A program made the translations under genes and the position numbers. Below, piece after piece: positions 17,397 to 58,703 of a stretch of 64,000 bases of DNA (the stretch's first letter is position 1; each line of letters begins with the position of its first letter). The notes under the pieces are model-generated. The model saw only the letters and a list, made by a program, of their open reading frames with translations. It searched no databases and was not told the origin of the DNA. Origin of the DNA: an uncultured Ignavibacteriales bacterium (lineage in GTDB: Bacteria; Zixibacteria; MSB-5A5; GN15; FEB-12); contig CAZVHP010000005.1 in NCBI GenBank assembly GCA_964627305.1, positions 162,458 through 226,457 on the forward strand, given 5' to 3'.

Positions 17397-18221
17397 GTGA
17401 ATCTGTCACGATACCGAATCGCCGTTTGTGTTCTGGTAGCATTACTGGGCGCCGCTTCGATGGCGACGGCGGCACCACGCCTGGATATCGAAGGAGACTC
17501 TTTCGATTTCGGCTTCGTACCGCAGAATTCCAAGATCACGCACTCCTTCTGGCTGAAATCGACAGGCGATGACACGCTGCGGATTGTCCGCGTGGTGCCT
17601 GGGTGAGGGTGCACGCAAGCGCCCTTGCAGAAGGACGCTATCGCTGTCGGTGACAGCGCAGAGCTTGAGATTATTTTCGACACGAGGCAGTACAACCGGA
17701 AGATGTCCAAACGACCGAAGATCATTACCAATATCGGTCCGCCGGACAAGCACGTTGCCATTAGTTGTACGCCGGTGGTGCGACCGGATTCGACATATCC
17801 GATCACCTTCAACCCGTACAAGCTTGATCTGACTCAGTTCGGCGAGAAGGTACGCGAGAATGTTACATTCGATATTACTAACGTCTCCGATCAGAAGGTC
17901 CAGTTCGAAGTCATTGCCACCCGCGATAATCTGTGGGAGATCGAGTTGCCGAAGTCGATTGATCCGGGAAAGACGAAGAAGGCAGTTCTCAAACTCACCA
18001 GGCAGGGTTTGGAGCAATCCTTCGAGAAGTCATTTACCATCCAGGTGAACGATGAGAACAAGAGCCGCTTCACAGTCCCGGTTAAGCGGTCAATCCATAC
18101 TGCTCGTCAGCACCGAGTCGTGACCCCCGCGACGACGACCAACCCGACAAGCGCGACTGGTACTGAGGGAAAAGCCGGCACCGGATCGACACAGAAAGAC
18201 AAGGGCAAAGGCGGCAAGTAG
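17397..18221 (+). CDS. DUF1573 domain protein, paralogue 2, with one in-frame TGA (17604-17606) at the conserved Cys position. Either a candidate selenoprotein or a recent pseudogene.
   Basis: Track ORFs 17397..17606 and 17625..18221 share a frame. The joined product reads ...FDFGFVPQNSKITHSFWLKSTGDDTLRIVRVVPG[TGA]GCTQAPLQKDAIAVGDSAELEIIFD... and is collinear with paralogues 1 and 3. Confidence 0.6.
17607..17658 (+). promoter_or_regulatory. Candidate SECIS-like hairpins downstream of the in-frame TGA
   Basis: GGGUGC-ACGCAA-GCGCCC (17607-17624), or alternatively GCAAG-CGCC-CUUGC (17615-17628), and CGCUGUC-GGU-GACAGCG (17642-17658). Folded by eye only. Confidence 0.3.
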
Positions 18222-18284
18222 GCGCGGGTCTCAAAGACAGGGTCCCTGCCTACCCAAAGGAATTCGGAAAACCTGGCAGAACTT

Positions 18285-18327
18285 GGCGCCACTCGACTCA
18301 GCAGTTGAGTGGCGCCATTCTTTGCTT
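18285..18327 (+). terminator. Rho-independent terminator after DUF1573 paralogue 2
   Basis: GGCGCCACTC-(12 nt)-GAGTGGCGCC, a 10-bp stem, followed by ATTCTTTGCTT. Confidence 0.6.
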
Positions 18328-18439
18328 CGCCGACCAGCGCCATGTCTTGCGCACTAATCTGCGCCGAGGCCTATGCCTCAACACACCATGGCGAGATCAC
18401 AACGGGTGATTTCGTGCCCGAGTATTCCGCAGGGGTGTC

Positions 18440-19909
18440 TTACTCGCCCTCGAACTCGGTGAAACCGCTCCTGAGGAGGTTCTCCCACGCTTGGTTGTAG
18501 ATCTCGCCATAGACGTTGGAGTGTACCAGACGGAAGTCGAAGTTTCCGGACCAGTCTTCGAAAATAAAGTACTTCCCCTCACGCATGCGGTGGTAGTACC
18601 ACACCTGATACGGATTGCCCGCTCGAGGAGCTTGCTTGTCCGTGATTTCATCGTAGAACCCGTAGGTCATCAGTACTCGTCCACGGTCGGTTGACCAGCC
18701 GTTGTCTCTGCCGGGATTGTTAGAGAACATCCTGTTCGCGTATCGCCAGAGCTGGATCGCCGCTATGCGGTTTTCGATCACGGAGGTTGCCGGATCTTCA
18801 TCGTTTTCAATCCAGAACTGCCTCAGGAAGTTCTGCTTTCCTTCGTCATTCAACCCCTTGAGGATTTCTCGCTGCTCCTCGCCTATGGACCAGTAGCTAA
18901 CCTGCACCTTCTGTTCGACACTCAGCGTGTCGTAGGGGTCCAGCACAGCTCCGGGGGTCCTGGCAAACTGCACGAACTGCTGCGATACAATTCGCACCGG
19001 TACCATAACCGTGTCACTCTGCCCACCCTCAAGGTCGCTGGCAACAATGCGAATCCTGTAACCTCCGGACGGCCACGAACTGATATTCAGTGTCTGGGCG
19101 ATTGAGGCATTCTGGCCCGGCACATCCATGACACGACCACCGAAGTTCTGATAAAACACGCCATCATCCCCATAGGCCTCAAAGGAAATGCGCCAGCGTG
19201 TCGTCCGATCCTCGTCATAGTCGAGGTTGTACACTTCGCCGAAGATGTAAGCAATTGAGTCTCTGTCGGCGTAGGTACCCGTGGGATTCGGGATGACAAG
19301 ATAACCATTGCGAAGCAACCTCTGATTAGGCCCGTCGTAACCCGGGCCGGCGTAGCTGATTCTGAAGGCTGTCTGCACACCCGCCAGTTCAAGCCGGTCG
19401 CGCTGAGACGGTTCCACCAGGATTTCGGACAGGAAGTATTCGCCATCACGCTTGGACACGGCATCGATAACAGTCACGCGAGCAGCGTACGTGCCGGGCT
19501 TAACCGTCAGCGCCAGCTTGTCAAAGACCATGTGGTCTTCGATTGCAGCCTCTGCCGAATCACTCACCTTGAGCGAGAAGTACGTGTTTGCCGAATCGAT
19601 GACCCAGCCGTCTTCGTCGTATAGATCGACCTGGGCAAACACTCGTCCGTACCAGGACGAATCGACTGAATCCGGACGGAAGAAATCAAACTGATTCCGA
19701 TTCATTCCGAACGGAAACTCGACCACGGCTACACTGTCATACACGGGGTTGTTATAGACCACAGCTGAGGCGTACACGCCTATCTTGCTTTTCTCCGATG
19801 CTGACACAGCCGAGGCTGCACAAAGCAGAACCAGCATCGACAGCAGAACTGAAGGCCTGAGTCTTGAAAGGATAGCCTTGTAGGTCGCATTGAGTATCAG
19901 CTTCTTCAT
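18440..19909 (-). CDS. GWxTD domain-containing secreted protein
   Basis: The C-terminal region GRDNGWSTDRGRVLMTYGFYDEI...NPYQVWYYH matches the GWxTD domain pattern. The start is set at MKKLILNA (ATG 19907-19909) with a signal peptide, because the longer track ORF overlaps the upstream gene. Confidence 0.75.
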   Translation of the reverse strand: MKKLILNATYKAILSRLRPSVLLSMLVLLCAASAVSASEKSKIGVYASAVVYNNPVYDSVAVVEFPFGMNRNQFDFFRPDSVDSSWYGRVFAQVDLYDEDGWVIDSANTYFSLKVSDSAEAAIEDHMVFDKLALTVKPGTYAARVTVIDAVSKRDGEYFLSEILVEPSQRDRLELAGVQTAFRISYAGPGYDGPNQRLLRNGYLVIPNPTGTYADRDSIAYIFGEVYNLDYDEDRTTRWRISFEAYGDDGVFYQNFGGRVMDVPGQNASIAQTLNISSWPSGGYRIRIVASDLEGGQSDTVMVPVRIVSQQFVQFARTPGAVLDPYDTLSVEQKVQVSYWSIGEEQREILKGLNDEGKQNFLRQFWIENDEDPATSVIENRIAAIQLWRYANRMFSNNPGRDNGWSTDRGRVLMTYGFYDEITDKQAPRAGNPYQVWYYHRMREGKYFIFEDWSGNFDFRLVHSNVYGEIYNQAWENLLRSGFTEFEGE

Positions 19910-19925
19910 TGTTCCCTTCCAGTAA

Positions 19926-21266
19926 TCAAAAATCCGGACGTTGCCCCCGACCGTCATAGGGGTACTGCAGACGGTAGTCGCCATCAAGATTGAGATCGAC
20001 AAAGGTGAATTTGCGATAGATGCCGTCGCGGTAATAGTGCCACTCCTGATACGGCACACTCGACAGCGAATAAGGGTAGTCATCGATCTCATCAGGCTCA
20101 CCGTGGCTGATGTAGATGCGTCCCCTGTCGGTCTTCCATCCCTCGCGGGTCATATGTCCGAAGCTCTCGTTGGCAACTCGCACGCGCCGGTAGAACTCGG
20201 TCTTGATCTCATTGGTGGTACTTCCGGGCGTCGGGTCAAGCTTGTTCCAGAACTCGTTGAACGCGGTCCGTCGTTCTTCGACAGTCTCAGCCTTCTTGAG
20301 TTCGTCTACTTCCTTGCGACTGGCAATGTATGAGATCTGCTCCACCAGCGTCTCATAGTCCTGATCCATGAGGCTTTCGACGGACCAGTAAACAGCGAAC
20401 TCTGCTCGCTGCCTGTCAAGCGTTCGGAGTCGACGGCCGAGCAATGACACCTCCAGTTCGTATTCTCCCGGGTCGAAGCCATCAACCGTGATGTTGCGCA
20501 GTTGCCGAGTAATCGGCTCGGTCAATTCGGTATGGAGCGAGTCTCGGTAGACCATGGAGCGGTTCTTCTTGCGTATCAGGGTCTCGACAACGACACTTTC
20601 GATGTCGGAGCTTCCGCGATAGATTTCGACATAGAACAACAGGGGATTGTCACCATCGCCCCCATAGCCATGATTCAAAGAAGGGACGACTACCATATTG
20701 CCCTTGTGAAATGCGCTGTGCTCGGCCTGCGTGGAATCCCAGGAACCAACGGCCTGGACCATCTCTATATCTGAAAGTCGGGGCGGCTTATCCCACCGCG
20801 GTGTCAAATCAACCTCGAAGTCGTGAGTATGAGTCGGCCCGCCATCGAGACTGCGGAGGGTTGCCCTGATCTTGTACCTCCCGGGCTGCAGAAGGAAGTT
20901 TGCCTGGTCAGTGCGATAGTCGAGGGCCGAGCGACCGGCGTCGGCCACCCGCACCGTTCCCTCCTTGGTGTATACATCGCCGGGCTGACCGCTTCTGCCC
21001 TGAACGTCTATCCTGACGTAGTAACGAGCCTGATCTACCCTGTCCTGCTTCTTGAACTTCAGCGCGTTGTTGAAGAACTGGAAATACACTTCAAGCCGAA
21101 CGAGCGAAGAATCCAGCGTGGAGAACTGCGCCCAGTCGACCAGAAACTTGGCGTTGTTGTCCGGTGTCTTCGTGACGATGCGCCCGGCCTGCGCCGACGT
21201 TCCCGCCAATCCCACGACCAGTAACGTCACCAACACCAATCTGAGTAGAGTATTCTTCATAGACAT
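19926..21266 (-). CDS. GWxTD domain-containing secreted protein
   Basis: Signal peptide (LVLVTLLVVGLAGTSAQA) and C-terminal REGWKTDRGRIYISHGEPDEIDDYP...VPYQEWHYY. Confidence 0.78.
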   Translation of the reverse strand: MSMKNTLLRLVLVTLLVVGLAGTSAQAGRIVTKTPDNNAKFLVDWAQFSTLDSSLVRLEVYFQFFNNALKFKKQDRVDQARYYVRIDVQGRSGQPGDVYTKEGTVRVADAGRSALDYRTDQANFLLQPGRYKIRATLRSLDGGPTHTHDFEVDLTPRWDKPPRLSDIEMVQAVGSWDSTQAEHSAFHKGNMVVVPSLNHGYGGDGDNPLLFYVEIYRGSSDIESVVVETLIRKKNRSMVYRDSLHTELTEPITRQLRNITVDGFDPGEYELEVSLLGRRLRTLDRQRAEFAVYWSVESLMDQDYETLVEQISYIASRKEVDELKKAETVEERRTAFNEFWNKLDPTPGSTTNEIKTEFYRRVRVANESFGHMTREGWKTDRGRIYISHGEPDEIDDYPYSLSSVPYQEWHYYRDGIYRKFTFVDLNLDGDYRLQYPYDGRGQRPDF

Positions 21267-21441
21267 CTAATCCGTTAAACGCGTTCAGCCGCCAAGCCGT
21301 TTCAATAAACGGCACTGCGGCAGACCACGCAACCTCTAACTAATGACGAGACGTGCGCCGATTGTATGCATAGCAAACACTGCTCGCGGTGGATCGGGCC
21401 AGGAATTGCGATGATATTAGATAATAACGGTGGTCGGACTG

Positions 21442-22692
21442 CTACTCGTAGCGCAGCGCTTCGATCGGATCGAGCCAAGCCGCCTTCGCTGCCGGATAGA
21501 TACCTGACACCAACCCCACCGATACCGAAACGGCAAATCCAACGATGATCCAGAAGAGCGATATCGATAATGGAAAACCGAGTGCGGCATTGAGGCCAAT
21601 TCCCCCCAGAACACCGATAATCACACCGACTATGCCACCAACGGCCGATAACGTGGTGGCCTCGGTAAGGAACTGCAGGATAATATTGGAGCGCTTGGCT
21701 CCAATAGCCTTCCGGATTCCTATCTCGCGGGTGCGTTCTGTCACCGAGACCAGCATGATGTTCATCACGCCTATGCCACCGACCATCAGTCCGACTGAGG
21801 TGATGATGATCATGGCCAGGTAGATGTATCTGGTGATGTTCGAGACCTGTTCCTTGATGCTGTCCTGCGTGGACAGGTGGAAATTATTCTCGCTTCCGAA
21901 CGGCACCCGACGGTAGACCCGCAGCGCCCCAATGATCTCTTCCTTTGCCTGATCAATCAGTTCAAAGCTCTTCGCTCTGGCCATCAGAGAGAGAGCCTCG
22001 TCCCAGGGGTGAAGCTTCTCGAATGTCGACAGCGGTATGGCGACTTTGTTGTTCTCGTACGAGTTGCCGAAATTGGAACTGATCTCCTCAAGTACTCCAA
22101 TCACGCTGAACCGGTTGCCGTTAACACGTACTTCCTTGTCGATAGGGTTTTCGTCCTCAAAGAGGGTTTTGGCCACATCGTGGCCGAGTACTACCACCAT
22201 CGCCCGCTGTTGCTCATCGATGTCCGTAATGAAACGCCCCGCACTGACGTTCTTGTCCTTCACCTTCAGAAAGTCCGGCCAGGTGCCCATCAACCCGATA
22301 TTGGTAGCCTTCCTGTTCTTGTACTTAGCGACATTGCCGCCCGGCGCCCAGTAATGATTCATCGGCGCCACCCCTTCTACCGATGGGCAGTTGTCTCTGA
22401 TGGCAACGGCCTCCCCCACTGTGATTTCGGGACGATTCCGCTCCGCCTCGGTCAGGCTGCTCCAGTCCACATCGTGCCCGAAACGCTCGATATCAATAAT
22501 GTTGCTGCCGATGCTGTCGATCTCCTGTGCCATGGCACCGTCCAGACCATTGATGATGGAGGCCAGTCCAATGACCGAACTGACGCCAATGAGCACCCCA
22601 AGAATAGTCAGAAAAGATCGTAGCTTGTTGCTCCTCAGCGACGACAGGGCCATCAGGACAGCATCCTTGATTTCGACACTGGTCAGCATCAT
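21442..22692 (-). CDS. ABC transporter permease, MacB/FtsX type
   Basis: N-terminal TM (LRSNKLRSFLTILGVLIGVSSV), a large periplasmic domain, and a C-terminal FtsX module ([18 protein letters not shown]). Confidence 0.85.
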   Translation of the reverse strand: MMLTSVEIKDAVLMALSSLRSNKLRSFLTILGVLIGVSSVIGLASIINGLDGAMAQEIDSIGSNIIDIERFGHDVDWSSLTEAERNRPEITVGEAVAIRDNCPSVEGVAPMNHYWAPGGNVAKYKNRKATNIGLMGTWPDFLKVKDKNVSAGRFITDIDEQQRAMVVVLGHDVAKTLFEDENPIDKEVRVNGNRFSVIGVLEEISSNFGNSYENNKVAIPLSTFEKLHPWDEALSLMARAKSFELIDQAKEEIIGALRVYRRVPFGSENNFHLSTQDSIKEQVSNITRYIYLAMIIITSVGLMVGGIGVMNIMLVSVTERTREIGIRKAIGAKRSNIILQFLTEATTLSAVGGIVGVIIGVLGGIGLNAALGFPLSISLFWIIVGFAVSVSVGLVSGIYPAAKAAWLDPIEALRYE

Positions 22693-22707
22693 AACACTGT
22701 CCCCTGA

Positions 22708-23931
22708 TTACTCATAGCTAAGTGCCTTGATTGGGTCAAGCCGTGCCGCTTTCATCGCCGGATAAATCCCGAATATCACACCAATCCCGATTGAGATCGA
22801 CAGCCCCATTGTGATTGCGAGCGCTGATGGTGAGATGTCGACATCGATCATGCCGACTAGTGATTTCGCAACAAGGAAGCCGGCAATGATGCCGATCAAC
22901 CCTCCCGAGAGCGTGGTCATCAGCGCCTCGAACAGAAACTGCAGGAGAATGTGGCTCTGCCTCGCTCCGACCGACTTGCGTATCCCGATCTCGCGTGTAC
23001 GTTCAGTCACCGATACCATCATGATGTTCATGACGACGATTCCGCCGACGACTACTGACACTGAAGAGATCCCTACCAGTCCCATACGGAACATACGGGT
23101 CACGTTGTTGAGAAACTCAAGAATATTGTCAGCCGTCAGAATGGCGAAATCGTCCGGTTTGTCATACGGCACCTGCCGCTTGGCCCGCAGCACCATGCGC
23201 ACCTCATCCATAGCCTGATCCATCGTTTCCAGGGAGGCCGCTTTAATGAAGTAGTTCAGCCGCGATCCCTGAAATCCATAGTGCTTGGTGAAGGTCTCAA
23301 AGGGAATGACGACGAAATTGTCACGCTGATTGCCCATCATCGAGCCCTGCTTCTTTGCGACACCAATGATGGTGTGCTTGACGCCGTCGATACGAAGCTC
23401 TCTGCCGATCGGGTCCAACCCCTCATACAATCGTTCCCTGATGGCGTCACCAATAAAAACTACTCGCCGACGATAGAAATCGTCTTCAAACGAGTGGAAA
23501 CGTCCTTCAGCCACCTCAACATCGACAATATCGATGTACTCGGCGGTGGTACCGAGAATATTGATGTTCTTAATGTTCTGTCCGCGATAACGAACATTGT
23601 CGGTAGCTGTACTGGCCGAATACGCAACTGTCTCGCACAGGTCGCACCCGGCCCTGATCAGATCGCCGGTTTCACGGTCGAAGGCCTTGCGCTTGGACAC
23701 CTCCAGCCACTGCTCGTGAGAAGTTACAATGCCCCATTTCTGCACAATAAATGTGGTGGGACCCAACCGACCCAAATCGGCTTCTATGGCCCCCATGATC
23801 CCCTCCAGGGCTGAGATAATTGTCATCACAGAGGTGAACCCCACTACCACCCCCAGAAGCGTCAGCCCTGAGCGGAGTTTGTTCGCCCACAGTGCGTGCC
23901 AGGCCAGCCCGATGAGTGGTAGAACGATCAT
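22708..23931 (-). CDS. ABC transporter permease, MacB/FtsX type (second paralogue)
   Basis: Same architecture as the adjacent permease: [22 protein letters not shown] ... [18 protein letters not shown]. Confidence 0.85.
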
Positions 23932-24638
23932 CCCGAGGTACCGTTTCGCTCCCCCACAGCGACTTGTTCATCAGAAGCAAGCTCACCATCGAGGATCGAC
24001 AGCACGCGATGGGCATGCAAGGCAATGTCCCGCTCGTGCGTCACCAGGATAATGGTATTGCCCCTGTCGTGGAGCAGGTTAAACAGCCTCATCATCTCCT
24101 GAGAGGTTTTGCTGTCAAGATTTCCGGTGGGCTCGTCGGCCAGCAGCAGCGACGGGTTATTTACCAGCGCTCTGGCAACCGCAACTCGCTGGCGTTGCCC
24201 GCCAGATAGCTCACTGGGCTTGTGGTACATTCTGTCGGCAAGTTCCACCTTCTCCAGAGCCTCCTCAGCCAGCCGCCGTCTCTCAACGGCACTGGTGCCA
24301 TTGTAGATCAACGGCAGCTCAACGTTGTGCAACGCCGTTGCCCGGGGCAGGAGGTTGAACGTCTGAAACACGAAGCCAATCTCGCGGTTGCGGATATTGG
24401 CCAACTCGTCGTCATTCATGTGGCTGACAGGCTTCCCGTTGAGCCTGTATTCACCCCTGGTCGGCGTGTCAAGACAACCAACGAGATTCATGAGGGTTGA
24501 CTTGCCTGAACCCGACGGCCCCATGATTGCCACGTACTCCCCTTTCTCAATCCGCATACTGACCCCGCGCAGTGCATGCACCTCCTCGGAACCCATAACA
24601 TAGGTTCTCCACAAGTTCTCAGTTTCTATCAGTGCCAT
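23928..24638 (-). CDS. ABC transporter ATP-binding protein (MacB/LolD-like)
   Basis: Walker [10 protein letters not shown], signature [15 protein letters not shown], Walker [13 protein letters not shown]. Confidence 0.92.
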
Positions 24639-24640
24639 GC

Positions 24641-38302: not shown

Positions 38303-39292
38303 ATGCGAGCTTACGAAGACATACTGCAACTTGTCGGCCATACCCCCCTGTTGAGGCTGAAGACCGGGATACCAGACCCGGGACCACGGGCATACGTCAA
38401 ACTCGAATTCTTCAACCCAACCGGTTCGATCAAAGACCGGATGACGTTCCACATTCTCAGGAAGGCCCTCGCCGAAGGACACCTGAAGCCGGGCGACACG
38501 GTCATCGACAACACCTCCGGCAATACCGGATCAGCCCTCGCCATGATGGCTTCCGTGATGGGCCTGAAAGCCATCCTGACAACGCCGGAGAAAACCAGCA
38601 AAGAGAAGACGGACCTGATTCACTCCTACGGTGCCGAGGTGATCGTCACGCCCTCCGACCTCCCGCATGAACACCCGGAGGGATGCTTCATGGTGGCCCG
38701 TCGACTGGCCCAAGAGAACGGCTATTTCGACCTGAACCAGTACCACAGCCCGGAGAACATCGAGGCCCACTACGTAAGCACGGGACCCGAGATCTGGGAA
38801 GATACTCGCGGCAGCATTACTCACTTCGTGTGCGGCATTGGTACCGGCGGAACCTTCTCCGGGACTGCCCGTTTCCTGAAAGAGAAGAATCCGCACATCA
38901 GGTGCATCGCGGTCGACCCGGAGGGATCAGTGTTGGCGGACTACATCAAGGATCGACGGGAAGTCGAGGGCCACGCATACAAGGTTGAGGGCATCGGGTC
39001 CGATGTCATCACGCGCGCCCTGTTGCCCGAGCTGGTCGATGAAGTAATCACGGTCTCGGACCGTGACTCCTTTGAACGCGCCCGGCTGGTGGCCCGCAAC
39101 GAGGGCCTTCTCGGCGGCGGGTCATCGGGATCAGTGGCGTTTGCCATGGAACAGGTCGCCCGCAGCGTGAGCGAACGGTCCGTCATTATCGGGATTTTCG
39201 CCGATGCCGGAATCCGCTACCTGAGCAAGTGCTATAATGATGACTGGATGCGGGCGCAGGGATACCTGCCGGCACTGGAACTGGAAAAGTGA
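38303..39292 (+). CDS. PLP-dependent cysteine synthase family protein (CysK/CysM/CBS-like)
   Basis: HTPLLRL...KLEFFNPTGSIKDRM (PLP Lys), SGNTGSALA, GIGTGGTFSG. Start at ATG 38303. Confidence 0.85.
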   Translation: MRAYEDILQLVGHTPLLRLKTGIPDPGPRAYVKLEFFNPTGSIKDRMTFHILRKALAEGHLKPGDTVIDNTSGNTGSALAMMASVMGLKAILTTPEKTSKEKTDLIHSYGAEVIVTPSDLPHEHPEGCFMVARRLAQENGYFDLNQYHSPENIEAHYVSTGPEIWEDTRGSITHFVCGIGTGGTFSGTARFLKEKNPHIRCIAVDPEGSVLADYIKDRREVEGHAYKVEGIGSDVITRALLPELVDEVITVSDRDSFERARLVARNEGLLGGGSSGSVAFAMEQVARSVSERSVIIGIFADAGIRYLSKCYNDDWMRAQGYLPALELEK

Positions 39293-39294
39293 TC

Positions 39295-40011
39295 ATGACA
39301 ACGAACCTGAGTACAACATTCACAATCACTATGGCGCTGATGCTTCTGCTCACCAGTGCCATTCACGCGGCGGGTCAGGAGTATTCACGGGACGACCTGG
39401 TGTTTCAGCCACAGGTATTCGAGTACGGGAGTATCGGTATCGACTACTCCGTTCATCATGACTTTCACCTGATCAACCAAGGCAGGATGCCCGTTAGAAT
39501 TCTGGACACCGAGATTGACTGCGATTGCACTACCCTGCGACTTTCCGACAGCGTCGCGGCACCGGGGGACACCATCGTCCTCAAGACAAAGCTCAAAACG
39601 AGCAATCTCTATGGCCCGACAGGCAAATCTGTTATTGTTGTTACCGATCACCCCCTTCTCGAGCGAATCGAGTATCGGTTTCCGGCCGAGGTTGGTCAGT
39701 GGAGCCAGGGGTTCAAGCCCCTGCCACTCGGTCTGATGTTCCTGCCGGGAGCCAAGCCCCAGGAAGTCCGTATCTGGAACCGGCACTTCCCCAGAGCGAC
39801 AATGGAAATCGCCGATCAATACGACAGCACTTTCACCGTGGAGCTGGTCAAGGCCAGTGTAGCAAAGGGTGAGATGCTGACGCTTAGTGTATCACCGAAC
39901 AAGGACTTGCCACCCGGCACGCACACTTCGAACTTCACTCTCAGCATTGTACGTGAGGGTAAGGAAACGCCCGTCCGTCTGACGATTCCGGTCAAAGCGG
40001 TCAAATACTAA
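39295..40011 (+). CDS. DUF1573 domain protein, paralogue 3
   Basis: Signal peptide, FEYGSIGIDYSVHHDFHLINQGRMPVRILDTEIDCDCTTLRL, and a C-terminal module ending RLTIPVKAVKY. The start overlaps the cysteine-synthase stop (GTGATCATG). Confidence 0.75.
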   Translation: MTTNLSTTFTITMALMLLLTSAIHAAGQEYSRDDLVFQPQVFEYGSIGIDYSVHHDFHLINQGRMPVRILDTEIDCDCTTLRLSDSVAAPGDTIVLKTKLKTSNLYGPTGKSVIVVTDHPLLERIEYRFPAEVGQWSQGFKPLPLGLMFLPGAKPQEVRIWNRHFPRATMEIADQYDSTFTVELVKASVAKGEMLTLSVSPNKDLPPGTHTSNFTLSIVREGKETPVRLTIPVKAVKY

Positions 40012-44634: not shown

Positions 44635-44709
<75 letters not shown>

Positions 44710-44721
44710 CAATAACATGAG

Positions 44722-44798
<77 letters not shown>

Positions 44799-44866
44799 TT
44801 TTTTACATAAGTGCCTCACGGCGTGGTTGAAATATATTACTGGTGGCTTGTCTGTCAACTGAATTC

Positions 44867-50739: not shown

Positions 50740-51055
50740 AGAATAGCCTTATAGCTGTCCAGGCGGGTTACGTGGCCCTCGTCATGTTCTCAATATCGAC
50801 CATAAGCGCTTAGACCTAAACTACTTAATTTATCGGAAACTGATACCACAGAGCAAGTACTTTCGGGCCCTGTAGTGAGTTATTTATCTCACGGGCACGC
50901 GCTACGGCAAACACGGGAATTTGCGGAAACTTTTGTGGCACAAAGTGCTTTGAGATAGAACAAAGACGACTATTTTTGAATCATCTGCCCGTCAAAGGGT
51001 ATCAAAGATGGTAATGGGCAGAATGAAGTAACAAGACAAGTGAGGTGACAACAAA

Positions 51056-51388
51056 GTGTTAGCAGTGTCGAATTCAGCGAGTCAGGAGCTCTCCAAGGTC
51101 CTGGAGCAGGATATGGCCCGGGACAAAGTATTGGTCATCTACTTCCAGGGTTATGGCTGAGGTGGTCCCGTTCTGGGAATGGCTCTGGATGAGTCAAAGG
51201 ACCAACTCGAGGCGCTCGAATCCAACGGCATCACAGCCTATATTGACCCACGACTAAAAGAGCAGCTTGATCAGATGGGCGATATTTTTGTCGACTACCA
51301 AGATCACGGCATCGGCGCCCGCGGCTTCTCAATCCGTGTGGGTCAGGATGGCGACTGTTCTGCCAAGGGCTGTGAAGGTTGCGGCTAA
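51056..51388 (+). CDS. HesB/IscA-like protein with in-frame TGA (51158-51160) at the IscA Cys35-equivalent position; candidate selenoprotein
   Basis: Manual translation from GTG 51056 (GAGGTG RBS 8 nt upstream) gives VLAVSNSASQELSKVLEQDMARDKVLVIYFQGYG[TGA]GGPVLGMALDESKDQLEALESNGITAYIDPRLKEQLDQMGDIFVDYQDHGIGARGFSIRVGQDGDCSAKGCEGCG. The track shows only the 69-aa C-terminal piece (51179..51388). Confidence 0.65.
51168..51182 (+). promoter_or_regulatory. Candidate SECIS-like hairpin after the HesB-like TGA
   Basis: CCGUUC-UGG-GAAUGG, 6 bp including one G-U, beginning 7 nt after the TGA. Folded by eye only. Confidence 0.3.
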
Positions 51389-51418
51389 GGCAAAACTCAG
51401 ATGGCGATCGATCGATCA

Positions 51419-51450
51419 AGGCCCGGAGCCGACTCCGGGCCTGTTTGCTT
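51419..51450 (+). terminator. Rho-independent terminator after the HesB-like gene
   Basis: AGGCCCGGAG-CCGA-CTCCGGGCCT, a 10-bp stem, followed by GTTTGCTT. Confidence 0.65.
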
Positions 51451-51529
51451 CGTCCGATTCGCCTGCCTGATCACCGGCCCAATCCGGCATGATCCTCGCC
51501 GCGCCCGCAGCCCACGGGCAACTTCAGTC

Positions 51530-52255
51530 TCACTGTGTCAGCACCTCCGGCTTTGTCAGCCGGGGGACGGTTTCGATGAGCAGACGGCAGGTCAACTCCG
51601 AGGCGTGTTCCAGAAACAGCACGAACTCCCCGGCTGCACCGCCCTCGGATGAGTCAGAGATAACCCTGACAACCACAAATGGGACACGGTTCATGACGCA
51701 TACCTGACCGACAGCGCCCCCCTCCATCTCCGTGGCAACCGCCCCGAACTCGCGCTGCAGGTACCGAATTCGCCGCGCATCCGCGATAAATGAATCGCCG
51801 GTGGCAATGGTCCCGACCAGGAGCTGTGAGTCCACCTCTCCCCGTTCCTCAAGCCCCTCCCAGGCTTCGCAGACAGTTCTCACCAGTCGGGGATCGGCTT
51901 CAAACATGCGGGTAAGCTCCGGGATTTCGCCGGGGCGCCGACCGAACGCTGTCAGGTCGATATCGTGCTGCACGACGAAGCTGGAAACAACCACATCTCC
52001 CTGACACAGATTCGGAACCAGGGCGCCCGCCAGTCCGGTGAAGACAACCGAGTTGACCCCGAACCGATCAATCAGAATCTGGGTGGCAACCGCGGCGTTG
52101 ACTTTTTCCACGCCGGTGCGAAGCAGGATGGCTTTGCGTTGCTCAAACGTGCCCAGATAGAAGGTGATTCCCGACTGGACGACGGTCTGCTCAATGTCAG
52201 CGTGCTGCAACAGCCGCTGAAGTTCCTCCTCGAGAGCACTAATGAGTCCGATCAT
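51530..52255 (-). CDS. mtnN: 5'-methylthioadenosine/S-adenosylhomocysteine nucleosidase
   Basis: MIGLISALEEE..., GVEKVNAAVATQILIDRFGVNSVVFTGLAGAL, ATGDSF, AVATEMEGGAVGQVC. The start is set at the internal ATG (52253-52255). Confidence 0.85.
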   Translation of the reverse strand: MIGLISALEEELQRLLQHADIEQTVVQSGITFYLGTFEQRKAILLRTGVEKVNAAVATQILIDRFGVNSVVFTGLAGALVPNLCQGDVVVSSFVVQHDIDLTAFGRRPGEIPELTRMFEADPRLVRTVCEAWEGLEERGEVDSQLLVGTIATGDSFIADARRIRYLQREFGAVATEMEGGAVGQVCVMNRVPFVVVRVISDSSEGGAAGEFVLFLEHASELTCRLLIETVPRLTKPEVLTQ

Positions 52256-52314
52256 ATCAATTTCCCCGGAAAGTTGGTTTGTCGATGTATCGGCCATTCT
52301 GCGTGATGGCTCGA

Positions 52315-53079
52315 CTATCGCGGCCGACGAGCAGCAAGGACCAGATCGCGGGATTTCCGACCAAAACGCCGGGTGAAGAGCAGATTACCAAACTTCTGTA
52401 TCGGCGAGAATCCCGCCCCCTCAGCGGCGGCGATCAGGTACTCCGGGTCGAAATTGTCGAACTCATGACGAAAGACTTCGAATGCCGGCGGCCTCTGGTT
52501 CAGATCGAGCCTTGTCACATATACTGACAAGCGGCGCCCGCGGCGTTCGCTGAATCGTTCGTAAACGATGCCTTCGTTCTCGGTAGCCTTGATGGGCATG
52601 ACCTGTCCCTCCCCTATCACGCTGTAATTGAGGGCCTGCAGCACCAGCCAGCCGCCCGGGCGGAGCACGCGCAGGAAGCTACGACAGGCCCTGCGAACAC
52701 CGTCCCGACTCCCAACACCGGTTATCGCGTTGGCAAGGCACACGACCAAATCGAACTGCTCTGTCATGTGTCGCGGCAAGGACTCGAAACGTCCGGTGAC
52801 CCACGTCACCGGCAAGCCCTCCGCATCGGGGTGATCCTTCGCTACCTGAATCATGGACGTCTGGCAGTCAAGCCCCACGGCCTCCACTTCCTGCCGGGCA
52901 AACAGCCGGGTGGTCAGGCCGCTCGCGCAGCCGGCATCGAGCACACGAGCTGGGTGAAAGCGATCGATCATCGCCTGCACTTCCCGTGCATGGTGCGTTT
53001 CACGAGCCGCGGCGTTGGTGATCAGATCGTATTCATCAGCGTAGACTTCGAAGGCGGAAGGTTGCCTGCTTCTGGTCAT
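52315..53079 (-). CDS. Class I SAM-dependent methyltransferase
   Basis: Motif I VLDAGCASGLTT, the post-I acidic residue (GLD), and LRPGGWLVLQ. Start at ATG 53077-53079. Confidence 0.8.
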   Translation of the reverse strand: MTRSRQPSAFEVYADEYDLITNAAARETHHAREVQAMIDRFHPARVLDAGCASGLTTRLFARQEVEAVGLDCQTSMIQVAKDHPDAEGLPVTWVTGRFESLPRHMTEQFDLVVCLANAITGVGSRDGVRRACRSFLRVLRPGGWLVLQALNYSVIGEGQVMPIKATENEGIVYERFSERRGRRLSVYVTRLDLNQRPPAFEVFRHEFDNFDPEYLIAAAEGAGFSPIQKFGNLLFTRRFGRKSRDLVLAARRPR

Positions 53080-53117
53080 GATTGGTCCGTTCTGTTGAAG
53101 GATCGCGTTGTCGGCTG

Positions 53118-53897
53118 TCACACACCGAGTACTTCGCGTTCGTGCTCGAAGCGAGAAGGCTTCAGCTTGATCAACCACCCCTCGCCATAGGTATCCTGGA
53201 GAGCGGCACCGGGATGGTCAACGACCCGTTCGTTGACTTCGACAACCGTGCCGGACAGGGGTGACTGCACCGGATGCGAGCGCATATCAGAGGTGAATAT
53301 CTGCATAAACACGCTGCCCTGACGGATCTCATCGCCGACAGTTGGCAAATAGACGTTCTGCACCTTGCCGATGGTCGACACGAACGCGTGCTCCACACCA
53401 AGCAGTACCAGACCGTCGGTCTGCATCACCATCCAGCAATGATCGCCAACCGAGGTGAGCCTGCCGGTCAGGCCATCGGAGGTTCTGTCAGTCGCATCGG
53501 ATTTGCCATCGACACAATCTGAGCCCCGCACCAGTTCGGCGGCACGGCCAACAACCGCCAGCAGTTCCTTTCGGGAAAATGGCTTGGCGATATAGTCGAA
53601 CGCCCCCAGTTGAGTCGCCTGCAGGGCGGTGTTGATTGTGGCATAGCCCGTAATCATGATGACCGGTATGCAGGGATGGGCCTCGCGTACTTTGCGCATA
53701 AACTCCAGGCCATCGATCTCCGGCATCATCAAGTCGGTCAGGACAATATCGATCTTCTCCCGGTCAATCACATCCAGCCCGTCCTGAGCCGACAGCACCG
53801 TCCTGATCTGGTACTCTTCTTTGCCGAGATGCTTGCTGACGCTGTCGAGCACGATTTGCTCGTCATCGACAACCAGTATGGTCATGTCGCTGGCCAT
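53118..53897 (-). CDS. Response-regulator receiver domain fused to a glycine-cleavage-H-like (GcvH-like) domain lacking the lipoyl-lysine
   Basis: REC: ILVVDDEQ...DIVLTDLMMPEIDG...ITGYAT...KP. C-terminal: GDHCWMVMQTDGLVLLGVEHAFVSTIGKVQNVYLPTVGDEIRQGSVFMQIFTSDMRSHPVQSPLSGTVVEVNERVVDHPGAALQDTYGEGWLIKLK follows the GcvH pattern, but FTSDM replaces ESVKA. Confidence 0.75.
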   Translation of the reverse strand: MASDMTILVVDDEQIVLDSVSKHLGKEEYQIRTVLSAQDGLDVIDREKIDIVLTDLMMPEIDGLEFMRKVREAHPCIPVIMITGYATINTALQATQLGAFDYIAKPFSRKELLAVVGRAAELVRGSDCVDGKSDATDRTSDGLTGRLTSVGDHCWMVMQTDGLVLLGVEHAFVSTIGKVQNVYLPTVGDEIRQGSVFMQIFTSDMRSHPVQSPLSGTVVEVNERVVDHPGAALQDTYGEGWLIKLKPSRFEHEREVLGV

Positions 53898-53918
53898 CGC
53901 CGTACCTCCATATACAAT

Positions 53919-55751
53919 CTATGCCGTAGCGGTTGGCAGAACAATCCTAAAAACAGCACCCCCGGCTCGTCCCATATCGATCTCGATCTCACCCTTATGC
54001 CGCTCGACAATACCCCAGCTCACCGCGAGACCCAAACCGTTGGTCCCCTTGGTCGAGAAGAATGGTTCGAACACCTTGTCGATCAGGTTTTCCGGAATTC
54101 CCGGACCGGTGTCCTCAACCGAGATCACACAGCGTCGGGCTCGCCTGTCGTAGTCGATGCCAATGTATATAGTTCCCTTGCCCTTCATGGCGTCGGAAGC
54201 GTTGAGCATGAGATTCAGCAGTACCTGGCTCAATTGGTGCGTGTCCCCCATGATATCAGGGATCTTCCCGCCAATCTCCTTCTCGATTCTGATATTGTGA
54301 AACTGCGGCAACCGTTCCACCAGAGACAGAGCCTGGTCGACCACCTCTGTCGGCTTCAGTCGGCTGAGCCTGGGTGCATCCTGCCGGGCGAAGTCCAGAA
54401 GATTCCTGACGATGTCGCGGCAGCGCAGAGTCTCTCTGATGATGACTTTCAGATCGACCTGGTGCGGCGAATCCTCGGGAATGTCATCGAGCATATCCTC
54501 AGCGTAGGCGAGAATACCGGTCAGGGGGTTATTGATTTCGTGCGCCACGCCGGCCGCCAGCTTTCCCAACGCTCCCAGTTTCTCTGCCTGTACCAGTTGA
54601 TCGCGAAGCTCCCGCTCGCGGCTGATATCGCGCATGATGGTACAGGTACCGGTGACAGTGCCTTCATAGTCGAACAACGGAAAGCGGACGGTCTGGAAGT
54701 AATGCGCCCGGCCATCAATCTCCACCTGCTCCTCATACGTGTGGTAGCTGTTGTCCCGGAGCACCTCCAGATCGTGCTGCTTGATTGTCCGAGCGAGGCT
54801 TTCGGGCAGGATGTCCTCGGGTCTCTTGCCCACGAAATCTTCCGGCGCACGGTGAAACGCCCTGGCGATGACCGGATTGACAATCAGGTAGCGACCCTCG
54901 AGGTCCTTGATGGAGATCCAGTCATGAGCCGAGTCAATGAAACTGCGGAAGCGATACTCGGCGCTTTGGATTTCTCGCTGCAGTCTCACTTGTTCGGTTA
55001 TCCGGTGCCAGGTGGCCAGCACCGTCTCGACCTCTCCCTCGCTGTTGAGCAGGGGCTTGCGCGTGACCTCCCAGTAGGCCTCATTGGGGGGGGCGGTGTA
55101 CCAGACCATCATCTGCGGCCGAGCATCGCGAATCACATCATCGAAACCCGGCTCGGACCGTCGACACTGCTCGGCCAGAGGTGTGTGGGCGAGAATCTCC
55201 TGACACGTCATCCCGACAACATCACGTTCGGCACGGCCGACGAATTCAGCGAAGCTCCTGTTGATGCGCAGAATCTCCCTGTCACGCCCCAGTACTACTG
55301 CCAGATCAGGCAGGCTGTCGAACAATTGCTGGAGGAACTGCCGCTCGGACTCAATCTTTCGTTCCAGCTCCGTCTTTTCGATAAGCTGTCTTTTCTGCTC
55401 TTCCTGGGCGTTGAGCAGATCCCAGAAGATGTGGGCGGTGGCGTGGTCGATCAGCTTGGTACCCGAGGGAATAATCCGATATAGCTCATCCAGTACTTCA
55501 TCGCGTCCGGTCAGCTCAATGAAAAGCTCTGCGTTCGGCAGCCACATTGCCTCTGCAAAGTCCGTGGTTGTGTAGATTGCGTTTTCTCTTGCGAACTGCA
55601 TACCGGGGGCATCATTGTCGGGATCGTGCACACATCGCACGTCAAGCGGCAACTCGCGCAGGAAACCGCCCAGCGCCAACCTGACGATCGCCCGGCAACC
55701 CCGTCCGCCCCCAATGATCACTGTTCGCAGCGGCTTGCGTTCCATCGCCAC
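53919..55751 (-). CDS. PAS-domain sensor histidine kinase with N-terminal Rossmann-like domain
   Basis: N-terminal RTVIIGGGRGCRAIV, two PAS-like segments, H-box AAGVAHEINNPL, and N/G boxes LNLMLNASDAM, DTGPGI, GLGLAVS. Confidence 0.85.
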   Translation of the reverse strand: MAMERKPLRTVIIGGGRGCRAIVRLALGGFLRELPLDVRCVHDPDNDAPGMQFARENAIYTTTDFAEAMWLPNAELFIELTGRDEVLDELYRIIPSGTKLIDHATAHIFWDLLNAQEEQKRQLIEKTELERKIESERQFLQQLFDSLPDLAVVLGRDREILRINRSFAEFVGRAERDVVGMTCQEILAHTPLAEQCRRSEPGFDDVIRDARPQMMVWYTAPPNEAYWEVTRKPLLNSEGEVETVLATWHRITEQVRLQREIQSAEYRFRSFIDSAHDWISIKDLEGRYLIVNPVIARAFHRAPEDFVGKRPEDILPESLARTIKQHDLEVLRDNSYHTYEEQVEIDGRAHYFQTVRFPLFDYEGTVTGTCTIMRDISRERELRDQLVQAEKLGALGKLAAGVAHEINNPLTGILAYAEDMLDDIPEDSPHQVDLKVIIRETLRCRDIVRNLLDFARQDAPRLSRLKPTEVVDQALSLVERLPQFHNIRIEKEIGGKIPDIMGDTHQLSQVLLNLMLNASDAMKGKGTIYIGIDYDRRARRCVISVEDTGPGIPENLIDKVFEPFFSTKGTNGLGLAVSWGIVERHKGEIEIDMGRAGGAVFRIVLPTATA

Positions 55752-55795
55752 TTGTCCTCACTTGACTGGTGCCGGATGTATGACACCTTCACCAC

Positions 55796-56761
55796 TCAGG
55801 ACGAGGGGAAGTCGGCATCCAGCATATCGGTATAGTCTTCAATCACCTGTGCCATGCTCTCATAGTATCCGGTGGGCTGAATGGTGAAATGCTTCAAAAT
55901 GCGAGCCAGCCGGTCGGTGACATACGGGTATATCTTCTGCAAGTTCATGATCCGATATTCATAGAACGCTCCGGCGTCGGCGCGCGACAGACTCTTCTTG
56001 ATCTCTTCGGGGATATCCCGGCTGTCCAGCACTGACTTGAACGAGAGTATCCCCTTGGCGAGCGCATAGTTGAAGATATTCCCGATACTCCAGACATCGA
56101 AGTCCGCCACATTCTGGTTCAGGTCGAAATCGATCCACCGGAAGCAACCGGAATCCGAATCCATGATTATGTGATCGTTGCGAATATCGCCATGACACGT
56201 CCCGTTCTGGTGCAGAAACTCAATGGCCTCCAGACACGGCAGCAGCTTGCGAAGAATCCACGGGAGGTCCTGGAAGAAATACTGACGGTGCGTCTTGTTG
56301 ATGTTGTGAATCATGTTGAACAGGCTCTGCCCCCGGATGAAGTCAATCACACGAACGTGGTTACCGGCAGCATCGGTGGTCGTGTATCCCTGCATGAAGC
56401 GATGATCCCCGCGCACCAGGTCAAGCACCTGCGCTTCCTTCTCGGGACTGCGGTAGCAGTGAACGCGAAATACACCGATGTGCACGTGGAAGTCCTCGTG
56501 GAACTCTGTCTTGAGGATCTTCTGCTGACCATTGTCAAGCTGATATGCTCCCAGCACCCAGTACTTCGGCTGGTCACCAATGCCGAACCGTGTTTCATAC
56601 TTGTGGCCGGTTATGAGGAACTGCCGACCATCGAGACAGAGTACATCGCCACGCGTGATCCGCATGGTATCGGTGGTGTCCTCGATGATGTTGGGCGGCG
56701 GCACCATCGCCCAGCCCGTCAACTCCCTGATGCGCTCCGTAAGCTGCTTTTTGTCCATCAT
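55796..56761 (-). CDS. Protein-kinase-like fold protein with atypical catalytic motifs
   Basis: The catalytic-loop-like HGDIRNDHII and IDFD (in place of DFG) are present. A candidate beta3 Lys lies in QKILKTEF. There is no GxGxxG loop. Confidence 0.55.
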   Translation of the reverse strand: MMDKKQLTERIRELTGWAMVPPPNIIEDTTDTMRITRGDVLCLDGRQFLITGHKYETRFGIGDQPKYWVLGAYQLDNGQQKILKTEFHEDFHVHIGVFRVHCYRSPEKEAQVLDLVRGDHRFMQGYTTTDAAGNHVRVIDFIRGQSLFNMIHNINKTHRQYFFQDLPWILRKLLPCLEAIEFLHQNGTCHGDIRNDHIIMDSDSGCFRWIDFDLNQNVADFDVWSIGNIFNYALAKGILSFKSVLDSRDIPEEIKKSLSRADAGAFYEYRIMNLQKIYPYVTDRLARILKHFTIQPTGYYESMAQVIEDYTDMLDADFPSS

Positions 56762-56954
56762 AGACAGGCCTCGACAACGCCGGTTGGTTCAGGATTCGGT
56801 CGGCCGGGTTTGCCGGTAAGCTATGGCCGTTGGTTACTGGCCGCAAGGTTTAAACACCAGCGACGCAACCATAACTCGTGGTCGGCACAGAAGAGCGGCT
56901 GACCCGACCGGATCAGCCGCCGCATAACACCCAATGTGCTTCAATCGCCCCGGA

Positions 56955-57410
56955 TCAGCATGGGCACGGCGACGGTCCGCCGCTGAACAGAAAAGCGATC
57001 AGGTAGGTCATATCTGTGATATTGATGAGGCCGTCGCAGTTGACATCACCGTGCGCATGAAGACACGGTGCAAGACCACCACTGAAGAGGTACGCGATCA
57101 GGTAGGTCATATCTGTGATATTGATGAGGCCGTCGCAGTTCATGTCACCACGGAGAGTGCACCCACCGGAGCCGGCGGCGAAGACTTGCCAAAACCCCTG
57201 ATTGAGTGCGTAGCTGGCAGAACCGACCGTCCCCACCGCCGCCTGACCGACCGTTCCTGAAAGCGAATAGCTCGCCGATGACATACTGCCCCCACCGCTT
57301 CCGATCACGTACCAGTCGATCGTTTCACCGGTCTTGCTCTCCGCCTGCGCAGAGCCGATCAGCATCAGCAGACATGCAACGATAGCACCAGCGTTCAGAA
57401 TATGCGTCAC
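56955..57410 (-). CDS. Small secreted protein with two dockerin-like repeats
   Basis: Signal peptide (ACLLMLIGSAQA), a Gly/Ser-rich module SGGGSMSSASYSLSGTVGQAAVGTVGSASYALNQGFWQ, then GDMNCDGLINITDMTYLIAYLFSGG and GDVNCDGLINITDMTYLIAFLFSGGPSPCPC. Confidence 0.75.
   Translation of the reverse strand: MTHILNAGAIVACLLMLIGSAQAESKTGETIDWYVIGSGGGSMSSASYSLSGTVGQAAVGTVGSASYALNQGFWQVFAAGSGGCTLRGDMNCDGLINITDMTYLIAYLFSGGLAPCLHAHGDVNCDGLINITDMTYLIAFLFSGGPSPCPC
56995..57140 (-). repeat. Intragenic direct repeat: two identical 47-nt copies, 99 nt apart
   Basis: GCGATCAGGTAGGTCATATCTGTGATATTGATGAGGCCGTCGCAGTT occurs at 56995-57041 and 57094-57140. It encodes the two dockerin-like repeats. Confidence 0.9.
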
Positions 57411-57422
57411 AACCCGCTCCTC

Positions 57423-58703
57423 TTACCTCGACGTTAGCTCACCCGTAATTCTACTATCGGCCTTTTCTGCTGCCAGAAGCACCCTGACCAACTGAGAAAG
57501 CTCCGACACCTGCTCCTGCAGTTCGTCCAACTTCAGGCTCATCTGCTCCATCTGCCGGACTTTGCTGGCCAGTTCCTGCTGGGTCCGGTCCAACTCCTTG
57601 ATCGCCGCCAGGGCAACACCGGCAGGGTCAATCGAGGAAATCGCGGTGCTGTCCTGACCCACACCGAAGGCGGCGCGGAAGTCCTGTGCCGTCGGCCCGA
57701 TATGCGTAATCTCAGGGGTCTGGCTCTTGTAGTTCCATCTCAATATATCCACACTCTGCAGTTGTAGCAAGATCTCCCGACCGCTCACCCTGGCGAAATT
57801 CTCCTTGAGGTTCCTGTCAGAGGCGTTCGTCCAGTCACCACCTTCGGACAGGTACGCCCCGACAATCGTGTTGATCAGTTTGTCGGGTTCGTATGATGCT
57901 GTCCCACCCGTGTTCGTAACGAAGATGCCGCCGTCAGCGCGAATGACCACCTGTTCGGCACCACCGGTGCCGATGAAATCCCCTCACGTGACGCAGTCAT
58001 TGGCAGCAAGTACAATGCAGCCATCGTGCGCCGCATTGCCGTTGTTGCCCATCGCTAACGACATCAGTCCGGCCGCCTGACATCCCTTGCCTCCCGGGAC
58101 CGATGAATACGCACCGGCGGCAACATTGTTGGTACCCGCCAGCACGCCGGAGTAGTCGCCGTAGGCATAGTTATCGAATCCGCCGATGACGGCTGAGTTG
58201 TCACCCAAAGTGCTGTTGCCGGCTCCGGCACAGAAGGCGGACTTGCCGGGATTGTAGTTGGAACTGCCCACAGTCAGCTTATCGCTGATGACCAGATCGC
58301 CCTTGATCGATCCCGCCAGAGCGCCATCCACCGAGGCCACCTTGAACGCAAATGGCACGGTCACAAGCTGGGCTCGCGGCGAGAGTTCTGCCGCACCGTT
58401 GACGCTGACTCCGAGCCAGCACAAACTGTCTGCGAAGAGGCCGACGTCCAGTGGAGTGAGTGCTCCCAGACGGGTGCTGAACAAACCATCAGCAATCTGC
58501 ATACCGCTTTGCGTTTCCTGCCAAATGGCCGTGCCACCAACAGGATCGTTATACAATGAAAAAGTCAGGTTGTGATTGCCGCTGACCGGATCGCCGCTGC
58601 TGTCATACAGCATCCCTTGGTAGGAGATCTGTGCCGGTACCCCGGCATAGATGTTGAGGGCCAGCAGGACAACACCGCCCAGGGCCAGAAGAATCGCTCG
58701 CAT
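57423..58703 (-). CDS. Tail-fibre-type surface protein (YadA-head-like repeats plus C-terminal S74 intramolecular-chaperone domain) with one in-frame TGA (57984-57986)
   Basis: Track ORFs 57984..58703 and 57423..57950 share a frame. The junction reads ...NAAHDGCIVLAANDCVT[TGA]GDFIGTGGAEQVVIRADGGIFVTNTGG. The C-terminal SDRNLKENF...HIGPTAQDF...IDPAGVALAAIKEL plus a coiled coil is the S74 chaperone pattern. The N-terminal piece has the signal peptide and the C-terminal piece has none. Confidence 0.55.
57955..57973 (-). promoter_or_regulatory. Candidate SECIS-like hairpin after the tail-fibre TGA
   Basis: On the minus strand UCGGCACC-GGU-GGUGCCGA, an 8-bp perfect stem with a GGU triloop, beginning 10 nt after the TGA. 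Folded by eye only. Confidence 0.3.

Follow-up and report, generated by a model that had tools for sequence, protein, structure and literature searches.

Three genes with single in-frame TGA codons

The 64,000-nt stretch of DNA analysed here, which we refer to as the window, comes from contig CAZVHP010000005.1 of an uncultured Ignavibacteriales bacterium and carries three genes that are each split into two same-frame open reading frames (ORFs) by one TGA codon. Gene 1 codes for an exported DUF1573 protein of the OS_HP2 type, gene 2 for a small HesB/IscA-like protein and gene 3 for a secreted fibre protein. An initial annotation of the window had proposed that these codons are read as selenocysteine (Sec). 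Comparison of the three genes with their relatives led us to the same view, namely that the TGAs probably specify Sec under the control of hairpins acting as Sec insertion sequence (SECIS) elements. The coordinates of the genes, codons and hairpins are compiled in Table 1; nucleotides (nt) of the hairpins are numbered with the U of UGA as 1, and the TGAs of genes 1, 2 and 3 are called sites 1, 2 and 3.

Table 1. Positions in the window of the three interrupted genes, their predicted Sec codons and the associated RNA helices.
Feature	Position	Strand	Description
Gene 1	17397..18221	+	274 codons in read-through translation; signal peptide; motif P-G-U-G-C-T
Predicted Sec codon (TGA), gene 1	17604..17606	+	First Cys of conserved C-G-C motif; context VVPG-U-GCT
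Spacer helix H1, site 1	17618..17639	+	Starts 11 nt after UGA; supported by fold and family covariation
Predicted apical SECIS hairpin H2, site 1	17642..17658	+	CGCUGUC-GGU-GACAGCG; 7-bp stem; loop nt 46-48
Gene 2	51056..51388	+	110 codons; GTG start; motif G-U-G-G-P; Cys-rich C-terminus
Predicted Sec codon (TGA), gene 2	51158..51160	+	Context QGYG-U-GGP; TGA in 27/28 loci
Predicted SECIS hairpin, site 2	51180..51196	+	UGGCUC-UGGAU-GAGUCA; loop nt 29-33
Gene 3	57423..58703	-	426 codons; signal peptide; repeat-rich fibre; A-N-D-C-V-T-U; C-terminal Peptidase_S74 from residue 295
Candidate Sec codon (TGA), gene 3	57984..57986	-	C-x-x-U motif; context NDCVT-U-GDF
SECIS-like hairpin, site 3	57955..57973	-	UCGGCACC-GGU-GGUGCCGA; 8-bp stem; loop G22 G23 U24

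A gene map based on codon usage places about 54 genes in the window, of which 25 end in TGA, 16 in TAG and 12 in TAA. When every stop codon with coding-like sequence on both sides was scanned, no gene interrupted by TAA or TAG was found in the window, so that the interruptions there number three for TGA and none for either of the other two stops. This confirms the statement of the initial annotation that each of the three genes holds exactly one in-frame stop and that this stop is always TGA. A fourth candidate pair of ORFs on the plus strand (20445/20772) was rejected because it falls on the strand opposite an intact gene for a GWxTD protein of 446 residues (19926..21266).

Leaving the three interrupted genes aside, the window has roughly 51 genes, and about 23 of these terminate in TGA at normal length. 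The well-identified genes that had been named as ending in this way, rfbD, rfbA, rfbC, the gene for a CBS protein and both receiver genes, do have TGA as their terminal codon, and in rfbD, rfbC and OEP the Pfam match extends to the end of the domain profile. The G+C content of the window is 56%. With some 23 genes stopping at TGA, UGA must be a stop by default, and a genome-wide change of the genetic code is excluded.

Homologues and loci are described below as Zixibacteria-type according to the labels of their source records, and it is from these labels that the window is assigned to a Zixibacteria-like bacterium. Taxonomic naming within the clade differs between records: L002, L006, L011, L013, L021, L023, L027 and L031 are titled 'uncultured Ignavibacteria', 'Ignavibacteriales' or 'Ignavibacteriaceae' despite having Zixibacteria-type orthologues.

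The interrupted codons and their hairpins in related sequences

The product of gene 1 matches the Pfam DUF1573 profile with 88.7 bits (cutoff 26.1), and full-length homologues have Cys at the column of site 1. Its close orthologues (L033-L036) as well as the 54%-identical L037 carry TGA at this very codon and in the same frame. A metagenome scan for the family returned 80 loci with 91 homologous codons at the column, 71 of them TGA and 20 TGC or TGT. Of the 71 TGA forms, 55 contain the 15-mer GCTGTCGGTGACAGC and the other 16 a one-base variant of it, and the hairpin that it forms was found in none of the 20 Cys forms, not even in those that also code for the A-V-G-D-S peptide.

Covariation was analysed in an alignment of 64 distinct TGA-form sequences of the site 1 family (A7). 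In this alignment the basal pair of H2 is mostly U-A (46 sequences), with C-G in five, and H1 is formed by columns 16-20 pairing with columns 33-37. Pair 18-35 occurs as UA (26 sequences), AU (17), GC (9) and GU (4), and the covariation score of H1 was matched by none of 500 shuffles. The window sequence itself folds into H1 and H2 (z = -2.5), with H1 in a slightly shifted register and with one C·A mismatch; the covarying pair corresponds to position 17621 and a partner at about 17636-17638. Pair 18-35 joins the wobble base of an Ala codon, where changes are silent, to the middle base of a codon that switches between Glu, Val and Ala, eleven codons past Sec. Judged from these aligned sequences, the RNA helix H1 appears to constrain an amino-acid choice in DUF1573 selenoproteins. 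A different hairpin, formed by nt 2-23 directly after the UGA in the minimum-energy fold, was set aside as uninformative since its bases belong to codon positions of Gly, Cys, Ala and Pro that are invariant and common to the Cys forms; it also competes with H1.

Several further observations concern gene 1 and its relatives. The public protein of L037 (P0123; GCA_000315315.2, AMWB02066452.1) has Trp at the Sec position; the DNA of L037 has TGA there, and the record read under table 11 does not yield the stored protein. Genetic code 4 was evidently used by the gene caller on the short contig of P0123 and apparently also on that of P0244, a homologue of gene 2. The window also contains two Cys-type DUF1573 paralogues on the plus strand, at 16547-17263 (motif G-C-A-C-A) and 39289-40011 (D-C-D-C-T), one of which lies directly upstream of the Sec form. 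The block made up of a Cys-DUF1573 gene, the Sec-DUF1573 gene and two divergent GWxTD genes (18440-20101 and 19926-21266, minus strand) is repeated in the orthologous contigs L033 and L035.

With Cys in place of U, the gene 2 product scores highest against the NCBIfam families NF038090 (IscA_HesB_Se) and TIGR01911 (HesB_rel_seleno); the peptide across its Sec position reads FQGYG-U-GGPVLGMALDESK. A scan of one genome per species yielded 27 further loci, mostly labelled Zixibacteria and in some cases Ignavibacteria, and the GTG start of gene 2 agrees in position with the ATG start of these 27 loci. At the column of site 2, within G-U-[S/G]-G-P, 27 of the 28 loci (window included) have TGA, and L017 has TGT. 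Public collections hold mainly C-terminal fragments of 64-72 residues of this protein. Three full-length homologues were retrieved, two of which (P0245 and P0246) have Cys at the column; the third, P0244, shows W there, probably the result of translating a TGA with genetic code 4. The column thus alternates between Sec and Cys among the gene 2 relatives retrieved here.

The 17-nt sequence ATGGCTCTGGATGAGTC, which encodes M-A-L-D-E-S and forms the hairpin of site 2, is identical in 22 loci at every position, synonymous ones included, and the conserved codons next to it vary freely. All five variant loci have A in place of G25, so that A-U pairs where the other loci have G·U, and three of the five also have the loop UGGAU changed to UGUAU; overall, 96.9% of the alignment cells of the hairpin are paired. 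Two Cys forms, L118 (GCC TTA GAC GAA) and L120 (GCT CTC GAC), encode M-A-L-D by other codons and have no hairpin. The initial annotation had described a GC-rich hairpin with a small G-containing loop after each TGA. The GGU-loop hairpins of sites 1 and 3 stand. At site 2 the hairpin with a UGG loop (nt 17-19) that had been singled out is present in the window, just upstream of the conserved hairpin; it was rejected as the SECIS candidate, as it is not kept in other loci.

The gene 3 product has a C-terminal match to Pfam Peptidase_S74 (36.4 bits, cutoff 22, residues 295-346), and its N-terminus weakly resembles the MAT domain NF053851 (31.4 bits, under the cutoff of 60). Full-length homologues are colinear with it across the TGA. 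The syntenic orthologues L001 (76% amino-acid identity) and L002 (71%) have TGA at the same codon, followed in frame by highly similar sequence, and substitutions fall mostly on third codon positions on either side of the TGA (for example 118 of 173 before it, and 88 of 141 beyond it). Past the TGA, an in-frame start codon first occurs at +12, +22 and +72 codons in the three orthologues; no start is conserved, so the distal part of gene 3 cannot be a conserved separate gene. The stem of the site 3 hairpin starts 10 nt after the UGA; all eight of its pairs are kept in three orthologues, where the sole two substitutions change G-C to G·U. Both of the non-TGA homologues that encode the peptide TGGAEQ at this place (2/2) have no such hairpin.

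The 239-residue truncated product of gene 3 is indexed in identical form in 49 blocks of the assembly collection, and the 24 contigs that were read include ENA and JGI assemblies. An exhaustive search of cluster representatives added four 50%-identity clusters (P0259, P0265, P0268 and P0281; 39-51% identity), whose proteins each end exactly at the site 3 column after AN(D/L)C-x-(T/L) and are candidates for further TGA forms. In distant full-length homologues the column of site 3 is occupied by P, I, T, L, G or Q. The Cys three residues upstream of this column is kept in every member of the subfamily, and the motif A-N-D-C-x-T-U is limited to this small group. A metagenome scan with an alignment of the site 3 segment returned no relatives, nor did two scans of viral contigs. 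The earlier claim that two of the three TGAs fall on Cys columns is borne out for sites 1 and 2, where homologues have Cys; the column of site 3 is not a Cys column. By analogy with members of the S74 family, the chaperone would be cut off at a conserved Ser (residue 295); Sec-240 would then precede the mature C-terminus by about 55 residues and lie distally in a fibre that is probably trimeric.

Gene 3 lies in a conserved block (56955-62042, minus strand; also in L001-L005) that comprises genes for a PKD/dockerin protein (460 aa), a protein of 142-146 aa and one of 395 aa with a signal peptide, both without assigned function, the fibre, a 151-aa dockerin protein and a Pkinase-like protein. 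This composition suggests a cell-surface assembly.

We also asked how specific the hairpins are. A SECIS-like hairpin, defined as 6 or more base pairs closing a loop of 3-5 nt that contains G, is found 15-50 nt downstream of 5.8% of the 2427 TGA trinucleotides in the window, a figure that is rough since the definition was chosen after the sites had been seen; all three sites have one. Hairpins with a GGU triloop and a stem of at least 6 bp number only three on both strands of the window, and sites 1 and 3 account for two of them. In 445 kb of fetched DNA, 66 of 80 GGU-triloop hairpins follow an in-frame TGA with an open frame on either side, and all 66 belong to the DUF1573 or fibre families. 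An Rfam search of the window matched four transfer RNAs (tRNAs) and no SECIS family.

Strong hairpins also follow two genuine terminal TGAs on the minus strand, at 51530 (8-bp stem, GGC loop, +21 nt) and at 56955 (12-bp stem, GGTC loop, +49 nt). Both are probably transcription terminators, and a naive SECIS scan would pick them up as false positives.

Proposed selenocysteine insertion and its alternatives

We consider it probable (about 0.85) that all three TGAs are Sec codons in intact genes, at which Sec would be inserted in a SelB- and SECIS-dependent manner. Confidence differs between the sites: Sec is almost certain at site 1 and at site 2, and likely at site 3. This reading builds on the conservation of the TGAs in orthologues, on the alternation with Cys at sites 1 and 2, on the coding constraint to either side and on hairpins that accompany the TGA and that most forms with another codon lack. 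The proposal of the initial annotation that the pattern reflects local recoding, and neither a changed code nor gene decay, is upheld by the same comparisons. From these sequence data we infer SelB binding, the actual incorporation of Sec and its chemical role as a redox-active or metal-binding selenol.

In the proposed mechanism, the hairpin located in the coding sequence just past the UGA would act as a bacterial SECIS element. With the UGA in the A site of the ribosome, recruitment of SelB·GTP·Sec-tRNA(Sec) by the hairpin would lead to the insertion of Sec in place of termination; UGA elsewhere in the genome would still stop translation. In gene 1, Sec would take the place of the first Cys of the C-G-C motif, and in gene 2 that of the N-terminal conserved Cys. 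In gene 3 it would form part of a lineage-specific C-x-x-U motif about 55 residues ahead of a self-cleaving S74 domain and hence come to lie near the distal end of the mature fibre.

Several results weigh against Sec insertion at one or more of the sites. The 65-nt stretches after the three TGAs have folding z scores of -1.65, -0.25 and -0.17, none significant on its own, so that the argument rests on the comparison with related sequences. With U replaced by C, gene 1 scores 77 bits against NCBIfam NF041425, the OS_HP2 (seleno)protein family, which is under the cutoff of 100 and makes gene 1 a relative of the curated subfamily and not a member by threshold. Gene 2 likewise stays below the curated cutoffs of NF038090 (59.9 versus 85 bits) and TIGR01911 (46.6 versus 66.35 bits). 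The apical loop of site 1 lies 45 nt from the UGA, farther than in Escherichia coli. The Cys form L017, which is close to L015 in sequence, retains the site 2 hairpin, leaving two of three Cys forms without it. At site 3, a Cys version of the motif was found in none of 274 retrieved relatives, and the usual Sec/Cys criterion therefore fails there. Finally, Pfam searches detected no selA, selB or selD among the genes of the window or in the fetched flanks, the only regions covered, and no tRNA-Sec was found in the window by ARAGORN and Rfam, which returned only tRNAs for Tyr, Phe, Cys and Gly, or in L001-L032 by ARAGORN.

The alternative that survives best concerns site 3 alone. Its TGA might not specify Sec at all and instead be a programmed stop, or a leaky codon at which the hairpin stimulates read-through by a standard tRNA, giving rise to the 239-residue product together with a minor full-length fibre, or to two polypeptides. 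Such a scenario would sit well with a column that lacks Cys homologues and is variable in full-length relatives, with a subfamily known chiefly from proteins ending at this column, and with a host whose Sec machinery can be judged only from the window and its flanks, where none lies. We nevertheless regard it as improbable. Coding constraint extends over at least 11 codons beyond the TGA, a stretch that has no conserved start codon. The S74 chaperone domain works on its own polypeptide chain; a fused gene 3 product would hence be needed. In addition, the site 3 hairpin shares the GGU triloop with the SECIS element of site 1 and has a spacing close to that of fdhF, and the Cys kept throughout the subfamily three residues before the TGA results in a classic C-x-x-U.

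Two broader alternatives to Sec insertion are effectively refuted. Pseudogenes with random nonsense mutations, or TGAs that stem from sequencing or assembly error, would explain why standard gene callers split each gene into two ORFs and why public databases hold fragments only, but the same TGAs recur across orthologues with 50-76% identity, in dozens of independent assemblies and in species-level genomes, truncated products identical to those of the window turn up in many independent assemblies, purifying selection acts on either side of the site 3 TGA, and the window is free of TAA and TAG interruptions. A changed code in which UGA is sense everywhere (Trp or Gly) could draw on the public gene calls that give W for these TGAs, yet such calls stem from short contigs to which code 4 was apparently applied, and it is incompatible with the TGA-terminated genes, the complete Pfam matches and the G+C content described above.

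Relation to known systems and significance

Selenoproteins of the DUF1573/OS_HP2 type were reportedly first described by Zhang and Gladyshev in 2007 and 2008, from an Olavius symbiont and GOS metagenomes. Both DUF1573 (pfam07610, motif UxC/UGC) and HesB-like proteins are published selenoprotein families (PMC9312934, PMC2398784, PMC1976440), to which genes 1 and 2 contribute new members specific to this lineage. Gene 1 resembles the DUF1573/OS_HP2 selenoproteins in its domain, which scores above the Pfam cutoff, in the placement of Sec in U-G-C and in having abundant Cys homologues. Unlike curated OS_HP2 (NF041425), it represents a subfamily seen mostly in Zixibacteria-type assemblies, and its putative SECIS element consists of two parts, a covarying spacer helix followed by a GGU-triloop hairpin 45 nt from the UGA, a layout of which a non-exhaustive literature search found no description. 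Gene 2 shares with the HesB-like selenoproteins (TIGR01911, NF038090) a small, IscA/HesB-like product, a predicted Sec at what is probably the N-terminal conserved Cys position, and the rarity of Cys forms. It differs from the curated HesB-like proteins in being near-universal as a selenoprotein (27/28 loci) and in its invariant 17-nt hairpin.

The mechanism itself is standard bacterial SECIS/SelB recoding and not conceptually new. In E. coli fdhF, the stem-loop is 17 nt long and begins 11 nt downstream of the UGA, and SelB binding requires its G23 and U24 (PMC8659212). As in fdhF, the hairpins described here lie in the coding sequence soon after the UGA and present G and U in a small apical loop. 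Site 3 comes closest to the fdhF geometry, with its loop at G22, G23 and U24 and 10 nt between UGA and stem. In contrast to fdhF, there is no evident equivalent of the bulged U17, the loops comprise 3-5 nt (GGU, UGGAU), and the distance from UGA to loop differs by gene (22, 29 and 46 nt); SelB binding is putative here.

Gene 3 resembles S74 tail-fibre, tailspike and MAT fibre proteins (such as endosialidase and the Bdellovibrio MAT fibres) in having a signal peptide, a weakly MAT-like N-terminus, a repeat fibre and an S74 domain, which, as in S74 fibre proteins, starts at a conserved S-D-R-N-L-K-E motif. What sets it apart is the candidate Sec, as selenocysteine is not known in those fibres. 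Its Cys-x-x-Sec spacing recalls the C-x-x-U proteins GrdA, HdrA and FrhD, in which the motif serves as a selenylsulfide redox centre or in metal binding. Unlike these proteins, gene 3 codes for an unrelated fold and an extracellular fibre, not a cytoplasmic oxidoreductase, and a redox role can only be inferred for it. A fibre, adhesin or S74 selenoprotein was found neither in a review of prokaryotic selenoprotein families nor in paper searches, and gene 3 looks like an undescribed selenoprotein family in an unusual extracellular, structural setting.

Other genes of the window are noted here in brief. A single ORF at 7352-9445 (plus strand) combines an N-terminal response-regulator receiver domain with a transporter of the Na+/sulfate-symporter or CitMHS type, an uncommon architecture, and is followed by a second, stand-alone receiver gene at 9463-9951. 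On the minus strand, a receiver domain is fused to a lipoyl-type glycine-cleavage H-protein domain (GCV_H; 53118-53897); this gene lies directly downstream of that for a PAS histidine kinase (53919-55751), and the pair is also present in L001 and L003. Tandem genes for tRNA-Cys(GCA) and tRNA-Gly(GCC), 15 nt apart, occupy 44635-44799 (minus strand), with no tRNA-Sec near them.

Public protein collections contain the three genes only as fragments or with W in place of Sec, and annotations of Zixibacteria-type genomes therefore lack a near-universal HesB-like and a very common DUF1573 selenoprotein. The Zixibacteria-type SECIS elements, together with the near-universal HesB-like selenoprotein, provide useful annotation detail, and the specificity of the hairpins is sufficient for them to serve as the starting point of a SECIS model for the lineage. 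In the spacer helix of site 1, the structure of the RNA would influence the sequence of the protein. Signal peptides are present in two of the three proteins, those of genes 1 and 3. We see an even chance that gene 3 founds a Sec-only family of extracellular fibres with the motif A-N-D-C-x-T-U and without Cys counterparts, and that the lineage, with three such genes in the 64 kb analysed here, has a large selenoproteome, systematically truncated by gene callers, which would be predictable from a GC-rich stem with a GGU triloop. If this is true, gene 3 would be a rare extracellular and apparently Sec-only selenoprotein that is built into a structural or adhesive scaffold and not an oxidoreductase fold, and, if confirmed, the fibre protein would widen the known roles of Sec beyond the active sites of oxidoreductases.

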